From the NCBI RefSeq assembly GCF_003790525.1, contig NZ_CP033635.1: DNA of 64,000 bases, one strand, 5' to 3'. This stretch comes from Escherichia coli. Lineage in GTDB: Bacteria > Pseudomonadota > Gammaproteobacteria > Enterobacterales > Enterobacteriaceae. The notes below the pieces were generated by a model. It was not told the DNA's origin and made no database searches. It worked only from the letters and a program-made list of their open reading frames with translations. Both the position numbers and the translations under genes were made by a program. Positions 42,250-44,757 of this stretch are shown here, in pieces. Numbering within the stretch: position 1 is the stretch's first letter; every line of letters starts with the position of its first letter.

Positions 42250-43320
42250 TTCTGGACCAGAAAGGAGCCTGTACATAGATTTGTGTAATTGCCTGATTTT
42301 GATATGTTCAATTCACCTTCAAATGAAGGTGAATTTATGGCCGACAAACAATTGCAGGCTCTGGCTAACGAACTGGCCAAAAATCTCAAAACTCCTGAAG
42401 ATCTCAGTCAGTTCGATCGCCTGCTCAAGAAAATCAAAGTTGAGGCTGCTCTCAACGCTGAACTGACTCACCATCTGGGACATGAAAAAAATCAACCCAA
42501 ATCGGGAACCAACTCCCGTAATGGCTATTCCACGAAAACCGTCCCACTACCGACGGGCCGATGGAATTACGTACTCCACGTGATCGTGATGGTTCCTTCG
42601 AACCACAACTGGTGAAGAAAAATAAGACCTGCATTATCGGCATGAACAACCAGATCCTGGCGCTGTATGCCAGAGGGATGACTACTCGCGAAATTACCTC
42701 AGTCTTCAAAGAAATGTACGATGCAGACGTTTCTCCGGCGCTGATATCGAAAATCACCGATGCCGTAATCGACCAGGTTGTAGAATGGCAAAACCGTCCT
42801 CTGGATGCGATTTATCCCATTGTTTATCTTGACTGTATTGTCCTGAAAGTACGGCAGGACAGCCGGGTTATCAGCAAAGCGGTGTTCCTGGCTCTGGGTA
42901 TTAACCTTGATGGTCAGAAAGAGCTGCCAGGTATGTGGCTGGCCGAAAATGAAGGTGCAAAGTTCTGGCTGAATGTACTGACGGAACTGAAAAATCGCGG
43001 CCTGAACGATATCCTTATCGCCTGCGTGGACGGCCTGAAAGGCTTCCCGGAAGCGATTAATGCCGTCTACCCGGAGACGCAGCTCCTGTTGTGCATAGTA
43101 CATATGGTACGCAACAGCCTGCGGTTAGGGCGTGGAAAGACTATAAAGCGGTAACCCGTGACCTGAAACAGGTTTACCACACAGCCACGGAAGAAGGCGC
43201 GTTGCAGGCGCTGGATGCGTTCGGGAAGGAATGGGATGCACGGTACCCGCAGATAAGTCGCAGCTGGCAGGCAAACTGGCCGAATGTTGCCACCTTCTTC
43301 GTGTACCCGGAGGCGAGCCG
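42250..43320 (+). mobile_element. IS256-family insertion-sequence remnant; transposase frameshifted and C-terminally truncated
   Basis: ORFs 42289..42615, 42561..43154 and the first part of 43091..44095 together give a mutator-type transposase (…IYPIVYLDCIVLKVRQD…WLNVLTELKNRG…). Confidence 0.75.
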
Positions 43321-44757
43321 CAAGGTTATAATAAATAACCGTCAATACGGTGCTCCGTTAACGCTTACGTCTGTTATGGTACTTTCTGATTGTTATTCAT
43401 GGGCTAACGAGCAGTTTGGACATGCCAGTCTCGGTGATCCGCGTCGTACACGACGCCTTGTGTCACTGGCCTCTTCTCTCGCTCAGCATGCAGGTCTTTC
43501 TATCGTGAAATCATCCCAGTCCACTGCTCAGGTTGAAGGTGCGTACCGCCTGATGCGTAACCCGTCAGTGTCTCCGGAAGCCATTGCCGAAGCCGGATTT
43601 ACCGCCACTGCAAGGGCATGTGAGGCACATCCGCTGCTCCTCGCACTGGAAGACACCACCACCATTAGTTTCAGCCACAGTACGGCATTTGATGACCTAG
43701 GGAATACCACTACTAACCCGAAGACGCGCGGGCTGCTGGCTCACTCTGTCCTGATGTATGCCCCCGACAGCGCCCTGCCAGTCGGTCTTATCGAACAGCA
43801 GCGCTGGAGTCGGGCCACGGACACCTACGGTGTTAAGCACCAGCGAAAAGAACGTCCCTGTGAAGAAAAAGAAAGTTATCGCTGGCAGCAGGCTTCGGAG
43901 CGTATGGCTGAACGGCTGGGGGAGATACAGAAACGGGTAATCACTGTCTGTGGCCTGGAAGCGGATATCTGGCATTACCTGCATTATAAAGTCAGCCACG
44001 GACAGCGCTTCGTGGTGCGTGCTGCACAGAATAGCCGGCAGGAAGAAGCACCCGGCAAGCTCTTCGAACTGCCGGAAGTCCTGACAACCGCATGAAGCCA
44101 CATGCTGAATGTGATGTAAAAAGGCGGGCGCGCAGCCCGCCAGGCCCGGATGTTCACCAGTTACAGCGAAGTCGGCATAAAAAATCCCGACAACAGCGGC
44201 CAGGCGCTTCCGCTCACGTATGTCTGTTGCCGGGAGCAGGCAGAGGACGGTGCCTGCTGGCATCTGCTGACATCAGAAAAAGTGGCGAGTGCCGCCGATG
44301 CGCGACGTATCGTCAGCCATTACGAGCGACGCTGGTTGATAGAGGAATACCACAAGGCGTGGAAAAGTGGTGGTACATGTGTGGAATCGCTGCGTATGCA
44401 GACCCGGGATAACCTTGAGCGCATAGTGGTTATCAAGGCGTTTATCGCGGTACGGGTGCTGGGCCTGCGGCAGGGAGGTATCAGTGAAGAAACACAAAAT
44501 GACAGCTGTGAGAAAATACTGTTGCCGACAGAGTGGAAACTGCTGTGGGTTAAGCTGGAAGGAAAACCGCTTCCGTCACAGACGCCGACACTGAAATGGG
44601 CCTGTCTGAAACTGGCGAAACTGAGGCGATGGCATGACAGCAAACGCACAGGTCGCCCCGGTTGTGTAGTCATGTGGGATGGCTGGTTCAGACTTCAGGA
44701 TATGGTTGAGGGTTACCTGGTGATGGAGTCTCTTGATCAGGAGCTCTGATCAAGAGA
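43320..44757 (+). mobile_element. IS4-family (IS50/Tn5-like) element remnant inserted into the IS256-family transposase gene; transposase frameshifted
   Basis: transposase motifs GDPRRTRRLV, EGAYRLMRNPSVSPEAI, ERFVVR, RWLIEEYHKAWKSG and DSKRTG spread over two frames; right end CTGATCAAGAGACAG resembles the IS50 inside end. Confidence 0.7.

Follow-up and report, generated by a model that had tools for sequence, protein, structure and literature searches.

Three truncated insertion sequences lying end to end form an inert scar in an Escherichia coli genomic island

In a 64,000-nucleotide stretch of the Escherichia coli contig NZ_CP033635.1 (assembly GCF_003790525.1; hereafter the window, in which position 1 is the first letter), the DNA between 42265 and 44760 is an inert scar of three truncated, known insertion sequences (IS) placed end to end: an IS256-family element related to IS1414, the last 39 bp of an ISEc23-like element and a copy of ISEc13 that has lost its left end. 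We consider it probable (about 0.85) that one transposition and one ordinary deletion gave rise to this composite. An original prediction, made from the same DNA, had set the limits at 42250 and 44757 and had described an IS50-like element nested in an IS256-family transposase gene. Its family assignments (IS256 on one side; IS4, IS50/Tn5-like on the other) agree with Pfam and with homology to the Tn5 transposase (E=8e-76), and its picture of an inactive IS graveyard holds as well, all three elements being truncated and predicted to be unable to transpose. The nesting that it proposed is not supported, and the locus does not correspond to a single known chimeric element either, since it holds three separate known elements; we infer that the true nesting event was that of ISEc23 into ISEc13. 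The features on which the text relies are as follows.

42265-43329, + strand: IS1414-related IS256-family element, first 1065 of about 1312 bp; the last 247 bp are gone, and with them the right inverted repeat
42265-42294, + strand: left inverted repeat of the IS256-like element (GAGCCTGTACATAGATTTGTGTAATTGCC...); homology to IS1414 and to the EC2641 copy starts here and the flanks differ
42338-43329, + strand: IS256-family transposase pseudogene; start codon ATG at 42338, one nucleotide lost after 42543 and another at 43126-43128, C-terminus gone
43091-44095, + strand: fortuitous read-through open reading frame (ORF) of 334 amino acids, from the tail of the IS256-like element through the ISEc23 remnant (39 bp) into the N-terminal part of ISEc13
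43330-43368, + strand: right terminal 39 bp of an ISEc23-like, IS66-family element (AATAAATAACCGTCAATACGGTGCTCCGTTAACGCTTAC); last codons of tnpC (N-K-stop), and right inverted repeat with the terminus ...CGCTTAC
43369-44760, + strand: ISEc13 (IS4 family, IS50/Tn5-like); first 158 bp (left end and leader) gone, right end intact
43376-44752, + strand: ISEc13 transposase pseudogene; one frame throughout (43376-44749), broken by the stops TGA (44093-44095) and TAA (44117-44119); codon GGC at 43952 gives Gly where Tn5 has D188
44742-44760, - strand: right inverted repeat of ISEc13 (CTGTCTCTTGATCAGAGCT read inward); same end in pMAR2 and in four other copies
44761-44792, no strand assigned: 32 bp of no assigned source, between the ISEc13 right end and the mgtC-side flank shared with another genome (L016)

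The 39-bp remnant at 43330-43368, which annotation had missed and which belongs to neither neighbouring element, changes the history of this locus: an insertion and a later deletion take the place of a nested insertion. Of its 39 positions, 38 agree with the 3' end of a fragment of IS66 type carried by plasmid pMB06102_contig_2, and 37 agree with the right end of the ISEc23 of E. coli A0 34/86, an intact element (tnpA-tnpB-tnpC). In all three contexts the homology ends exactly at ...GCTTAC, the ISEc23 terminus. The remnant thus carries a terminal inverted repeat of the IS66-family GTAAGCG... type that matches a named member. Probes for the left end and the 3' end of ISEc23 found nothing further in the window, which also lacks the tnpA-tnpB-tnpC set. 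The original prediction had the IS256 frame running directly into IS4-family sequence within the ORF at 43091-44095; Pfam indeed recognizes both parts there, but the passage from one to the other is not direct, as the ISEc23 terminus stands between them.

On the left side of the composite, homology to the IS1414 of plasmid pRHB11-C13_2 starts exactly at GAGCCTGTACA, at 42265, next to a left flank that reads CCAGAAAG. Only this end of the IS256-like element survives, and two terminal inverted repeats are therefore not present. A near-complete relative is found in EC2641, at 96.4% identity by megablast and about 97% column identity by direct alignment, whereas IS1414 proper reaches a mean column identity of about 83% when the flanks are part of the alignment, and IS1414-annotated copies about 82% by megablast. 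The window copy thus belongs to a lineage that is sister to IS1414 and is 96-97% identical to the copies in EC2641 and pOkiPb01714_1. The full length of about 1312 bp was estimated from the EC2641 copy together with a separate 3' fragment (L007). The matches of four other copies or fragments (EC2641, Z1323MEC0001, pOkiPb01714_1 and short 3' fragments such as that of A1_136) all end at 43329, and beyond the equivalent position EC2641 and A1_136 carry IS256-type sequence that is not present in the window; the window copy has therefore been cut at position 1065 of about 1312. The earlier statement that the IS256 C-terminus does not resume is borne out: probing the window with the 247 bp of the missing 3' end gave no match beyond the similarity to be expected of the two inverted repeats. 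A degenerate right end at 44795-44846 (inverted repeat I1) was also considered and was rejected, given that the 3' probe had no match there and that the repeat is no better than chance pairs.

The transposase gene of this element is recognized by Pfam as Transposase_mut (PF00872) in ORFs of three successive frames across 42289-43330, the middle one with E=2.1e-67 and the flanking ones covering profile positions 16-70 and 268-334. Alignment to the EC2641 copy located two 1-nt deletions, which put the IS256 coding sequence in three frames; the T near 43128 is kept in three sister alleles (L015, L020 and L022). Both transposases had been described as frameshifted, which is correct for the IS256-like one, but the ISEc13 gene is a single frame with two nonsense codons.

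Two further observations concern the 5' part of the IS256-like element. A perfect 12-bp hairpin at 42310-42335 (AATTCACCTTCA / TGAAGGTGAATT) stops 3 nt short of the transposase start codon (ATG, 42338). It holds the likely Shine-Dalgarno sequence and may occlude translation; in IS1414 and EC2641 the hairpin is imperfect. Moreover, the first 102 bp (42265-42366) are 94% identical to a single-copy remnant in thousands of E. coli chromosomes, K-12 included; in K-12 MC4100 this remnant (L008, 4001-4102) lies between dadX and cvrA and overlaps a 'hypothetical protein' pseudogene.

On the right side, the sequence from 43369 is 96.3% identical (1340/1392) to positions 159-1550 of the 1550-bp ISEc13 in pMAR2, and plasmid matches annotated 'IS4-like element ISEc13' begin at that same base. 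Five other ISEc13 copies (pMAR2, pRHB11-C13_2 and the chromosomes of AST216, an ST131 strain and an O157:H7 strain) extend 158 bp further leftward to CTGTCTCTTATACACAAAT, and their flanks differ only beyond this sequence. As all megablast matches began at GTCTGTTATGG, it was considered as the ISEc13 left end, and it was rejected because these five copies run 158 bp further to a Tn5-like end. At 44760 the element finishes with ...CTGATCAAGAGACAG, again a Tn5-like end; the ends of ISEc13 resemble, we presume, the outside and inside ends of Tn5. The window therefore holds one of two 19-bp ends, the right one at 44742-44760, the left one (CTGTCTCTTATACACAAAT) being absent from it. No 9-bp target duplication was found around ISEc13, the left side reading AACGCTTAC/ACGCTTACG and the right side CTAGTACAG.

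The pseudogene within this copy has the same 457-codon transposase frame as other ISEc13, and its alignment with the Tn5 transposase 4dm0 spans residues 6-453. The Tn5-type domains Tnp_DNA_bind, DDE_Tnp_1 and Dimer_Tnp_Tn5 are recovered by Pfam together with this homology, although the last two, found in the ORF at 44150-44749, each score just under the Pfam gathering cut-off. The DDE catalytic triad of Tn5 consists of D97, D188 and E326. In the window a glycine stands opposite D188 (CDREAD has become CGLEAD), where intact ISEc13 reads GAC CGG, and the equivalents of D97 and E326 are kept. The triad is thus broken, and the frame contains two in-frame stops besides.

ISEc13 showed some further traits in the window and elsewhere. 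The right inverted repeat and an inverted copy of it form a perfect 13-bp palindrome (44728-44758) across the transposase stop codon, which is also seen in intact ISEc13. Several ISEc13 copies are internally deleted, with lengths of 1445-1538 bp against 1550 bp. On three IncF plasmids (pMAR2, pRHB11-C13_2 and ECdb0033_p4) ISEc13 adjoins hok/gef, and in pMAR2 its other side faces finO.

The two internal joints of the composite are of different kinds. The ISEc23 terminus meets ISEc13 position 159 to the base, and such a joint would be the signature of ISEc23 transposing into the ISEc13 leader. A parallel exists in A0 34/86, where a whole ISEc23 lies in ISEc13, 22 bp upstream of the position seen here and with an 8-bp duplication (TCTTATAT), and a third ISEc23 insertion lies further inside ISEc13 on an IncFII plasmid. 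The joint between the IS256-like element and ISEc23, by contrast, connects two internal positions and has no microhomology. Judged from its sequence, it is a plain deletion scar and not the product of transposition or of an IS-mediated adjacent deletion, because either of these would keep an element terminus. One deletion accounts for the simultaneous lack of the IS256 3' end, of ISEc13 positions 1-158 and of nearly all of ISEc23, and none of these missing parts was found elsewhere in the window.

The following course of events would fit these joints. Judging from the exact termini, a copy of ISEc13 would have come to lie upstream of the present mgtC-like gene. An ISEc23-like element would then have entered its leader between positions 158 and 159, as both the exact terminus and the independent parallel suggest; with an insertion at this point the right inverted repeat (...CGCTTAC) abuts GTCTGTTATGG. 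A deletion with two internal breakpoints and no microhomology would next have run from position 1065 of an IS256-like element lying upstream to 39 bp before the ISEc23 right end, and would have taken with it the IS256 3' end, the intervening DNA, if any, ISEc13 positions 1-158 and nearly all of ISEc23. The last step is point decay, which can be read directly in the window as two 1-nt deletions in the IS256-like gene and as two nonsense codons and the loss of D188 in ISEc13. What is left is predicted to be immobile: the IS256-like element because it has its left end only, ISEc13 because it has its right end only, no promoter or leader and a dead gene, and ISEc23 because 39 bp remain. A plausible remaining activity is passive recombination homology with other copies, and nothing else is likely.

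Some points weigh against this reconstruction. The search for junctions and intermediates covered 5,426 complete E. coli genomes, and neither an empty site nor an intermediate at the locus was found among them, every carrier of the island having the same composite. Likewise, no whole ISEc23 at ISEc13 158/159 and no intact IS256-like element at the locus was found, and a reciprocal junction between ISEc13 (1-166) and the ISEc23 left end was absent from these genomes, where only the A0 34/86 insertion and an unrelated plasmid case were met. In the absence of an intermediate or a reciprocal junction, we infer the order of events rather than observe it. Moreover, the 32 bp at 44761-44792 are not accounted for by this course of events, and a 9-bp duplication is absent from all the ISEc13 copies examined, which include four distinct other contexts. 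Finally, the names IS1414, ISEc13 and ISEc23 are those given by the Prokaryotic Genome Annotation Pipeline (PGAP) to the matching records.

Other histories can be weighed against the same joints. That ISEc13 transposed into the IS256-family transposase gene, with a later loss of the right part of the IS256 element, was the model of the original prediction, and it would explain why the two transposase sequences adjoin in the same orientation with one ORF across them and why the IS256 3' end is missing. We give it hardly any credence: ISEc13 starts at its own position 159 and lacks its left 158 bp with the left inverted repeat, which contradicts the model, its left neighbour is the right terminus of ISEc23 and not IS256-like sequence, and there is neither a 9-bp duplication nor any resumption of IS256 sequence. 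The direct joining of IS256-like sequence to internal ISEc23 sequence might alternatively reflect a transposition of the IS256-like element into ISEc23, 39 bp from its right end, followed by the loss of its own 3' 247 bp. Such a joint would however place the IS256 right inverted repeat beside ISEc23, when the actual joint is at IS256 position 1065, and a second deletion ending exactly at the former IS256 right boundary would be required, which is less parsimonious than a single deletion. A complete IS256-like element with an 8-bp duplication of ISEc23 was not found in the genome set, which argues against this course without being proof, and overall we regard it as very unlikely.

It could also be asked whether the joint between ISEc23 and ISEc13 is a random deletion scar too, and not a transposition joint, since only one ISEc23 end is present and an 8-bp duplication cannot be checked. 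This seems highly improbable to us, as the joint falls, to the base, on the ISEc23 terminus (...GCTTAC) seen in two other contexts, and as insertion of ISEc23 into ISEc13 is demonstrated elsewhere (A0 34/86 and the IncFII plasmid). One transposition of ISEc23 into ISEc13 and one ordinary deletion thus remain our preferred reading. A preference of ISEc23 for ISEc13 as a target, especially for its 5' leader, might also be considered, given two independent insertions 22 bp apart (the window and A0 34/86) and a third on an IncFII plasmid. We hold such a preference to be rather unlikely; if true, it would amount to an IS-targets-IS hotspot that systematically inactivates ISEc13.

The composite is part of a genomic island, between a DUF5339 gene and an MgtC/SapB-family gene in the RefSeq annotation. 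The 2.6 kb region is 100% identical to the chromosomes of E. coli SMS-3-5, FDAARGOS_497, ECONIH1 and others, at least 80% of the structure is present in 196 complete E. coli genomes, and all three junctions are common to about 196 genomes at 99.8-100% identity. The composite is a stable clonal marker of the island in these genomes. All three elements are already known, and RefSeq already marks the two transposase pseudogenes, an 'IS256 family transposase' (frameshifted; incomplete; missing C-terminus) and then an 'IS4 family transposase' (internal stop). An Rfam scan of 36000-48000 gave nothing inside the composite, its group II intron domains being upstream only. The overall importance of the locus is thus small, as it consists of inert debris of three well-known E. 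coli insertion sequences.

The read-through ORF at 43091-44095 nevertheless deserves a comment. Pfam finds Transposase_mut at its residues 16-82 and the Tn5-type Tnp_DNA_bind at residues 103-160, and where sister alleles lack the second frameshift, an ORF of 511 amino acids is called. One might thus think of a domesticated chimeric protein, for instance a transposition regulator with a Tn5-type DNA-binding domain, and the ORF is indeed present, and longer in some strains. However, it starts at an internal GTG of a frameshifted gene, spans 39 bp of non-coding inverted repeat and stops at a nonsense mutation. Its reading frame also differs between near-identical alleles through indels: relative to the window, the sister alleles L015, L020 and L022 have four or five substitutions and two indels of a single base, and one of these indels restores the second IS256 frame. 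No conservation of the ORF beyond clonal identity was found, and the allele pattern indicates neutral decay and not selection on a fusion ORF. Such domestication therefore has next to no probability in our view, and the junction-crossing ORF should not be read as a chimeric gene.

A second ORF lies within the IS256-like element.

43060-43098, + strand: dead astA (EAST1 enterotoxin)-like ORF, in the -1 frame of the transposase gene, with a stop at codon 13

According to McVeigh et al. 2000, as cited in PMC12585946, IS1414 belongs to the IS256 family and carries astA, which encodes EAST1, in the -1 frame of tnp; decayed IS1414 copies have been reported to be widespread in E. coli (PMC12585946). 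The IS1414 of pRHB11-C13_2 is 1315 bp long, is bounded by GAGCC...GGCTC and is flanked by an 8-bp duplication (TGGCGATG). Its intact EAST1 has 38 amino acids, whereas the astA-like segment of the window translates to MPSTRRRSSCCA*. With the divergence given above and an embedded astA ORF that is not intact, the window copy is not a member of IS1414 itself. EC2641, the closest relative, appears, from its sequence, to share the codon-13 stop. This sister lineage thus probably does not encode the EAST1 toxin, and the segment at 43060-43098 should not be counted as a toxin gene. On two IncF plasmids (L002 and pRHB11-C13_2), an intact astA-bearing IS1414 comes after ISEc13 at a distance of no more than about 30 bp. 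Two plasmid matches with 93% query cover (H26 and H27) were considered as examples of the window junction and were rejected, because there ISEc13 comes first and then IS1414, an order opposite to that of the window.

At the right-hand edge, the 32 bp at 44761-44792 were compared with the pMAR2 flank of ISEc13 as a possible IncF plasmid flank, and this origin was rejected for want of significant similarity, as 216 out of 2000 shuffles scored no lower. In the genome L016 (6829-8152) the MgtC-side homology to the window ends at 44793 and unrelated DNA follows, which suggests that the MgtC module has a boundary or a breakpoint at this position. In the same genome the module of MgtC, nucleoside hydrolase, LacI and MFS genes abuts a transporter-fragment ORF, and then PIG-L and glycosyltransferase genes. 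In one carrier genome (L017, 6813-8142) a further element, of the IS3 family, is inserted between ISEc13 and the MgtC-family gene, with a 6-bp flank overlap at 44808-44813. The nucleoside hydrolase, LacI and MFS genes are also found on a 148-kb plasmid in E. coli 1424KP, where they lie with panBCD in a segment of chromosomal type between two IS26; this IS26-bounded copy of the right-hand genes was uninformative on intermediates. On the other side of the composite, 38948-39236 and 39274-39720 contain group II intron RNA domains (Rfam RF02001, 140 bits, and RF01998, 72 bits), after which comes a short 'maturase' ORF. This block has a G+C content of 56-60%, lies beside a TnpB fragment and looks like another decayed mobile element at the island edge.

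In comparison with the known elements, the window copy of the IS256-like element shares with IS1414 the left inverted repeat, the gene layout, the Transposase_mut domain and, in the corresponding position, a segment homologous to astA; it differs in belonging to a sister lineage, in the loss of the 3' 247 bp, in its two frameshifts and in an astA-like ORF stopped at codon 13. ISEc23 is represented by its last 39 bp, which take in the stop codon of tnpC and the right inverted repeat (terminus GTAAGCG... when read inward), whereas tnpA, tnpB, the rest of tnpC and the left end of that element are absent. ISEc13 is typical of IncF plasmids, such as pMAR2 of enteropathogenic E. coli E2348/69. The copy studied here is like it in its 96.3% identity over 1392 bp, its right end and its transposase frame, and unlike it in lacking positions 1-158 and in its two nonsense codons, its D188G change and the lack of a target duplication. 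Finally, the ISEc13 transposase is a full-length homologue of the Tn5 transposase with the same domain set; ISEc13 is nevertheless a different element from IS50/Tn5, and its copy in the window is one-ended and, as predicted from its sequence, catalytically dead.

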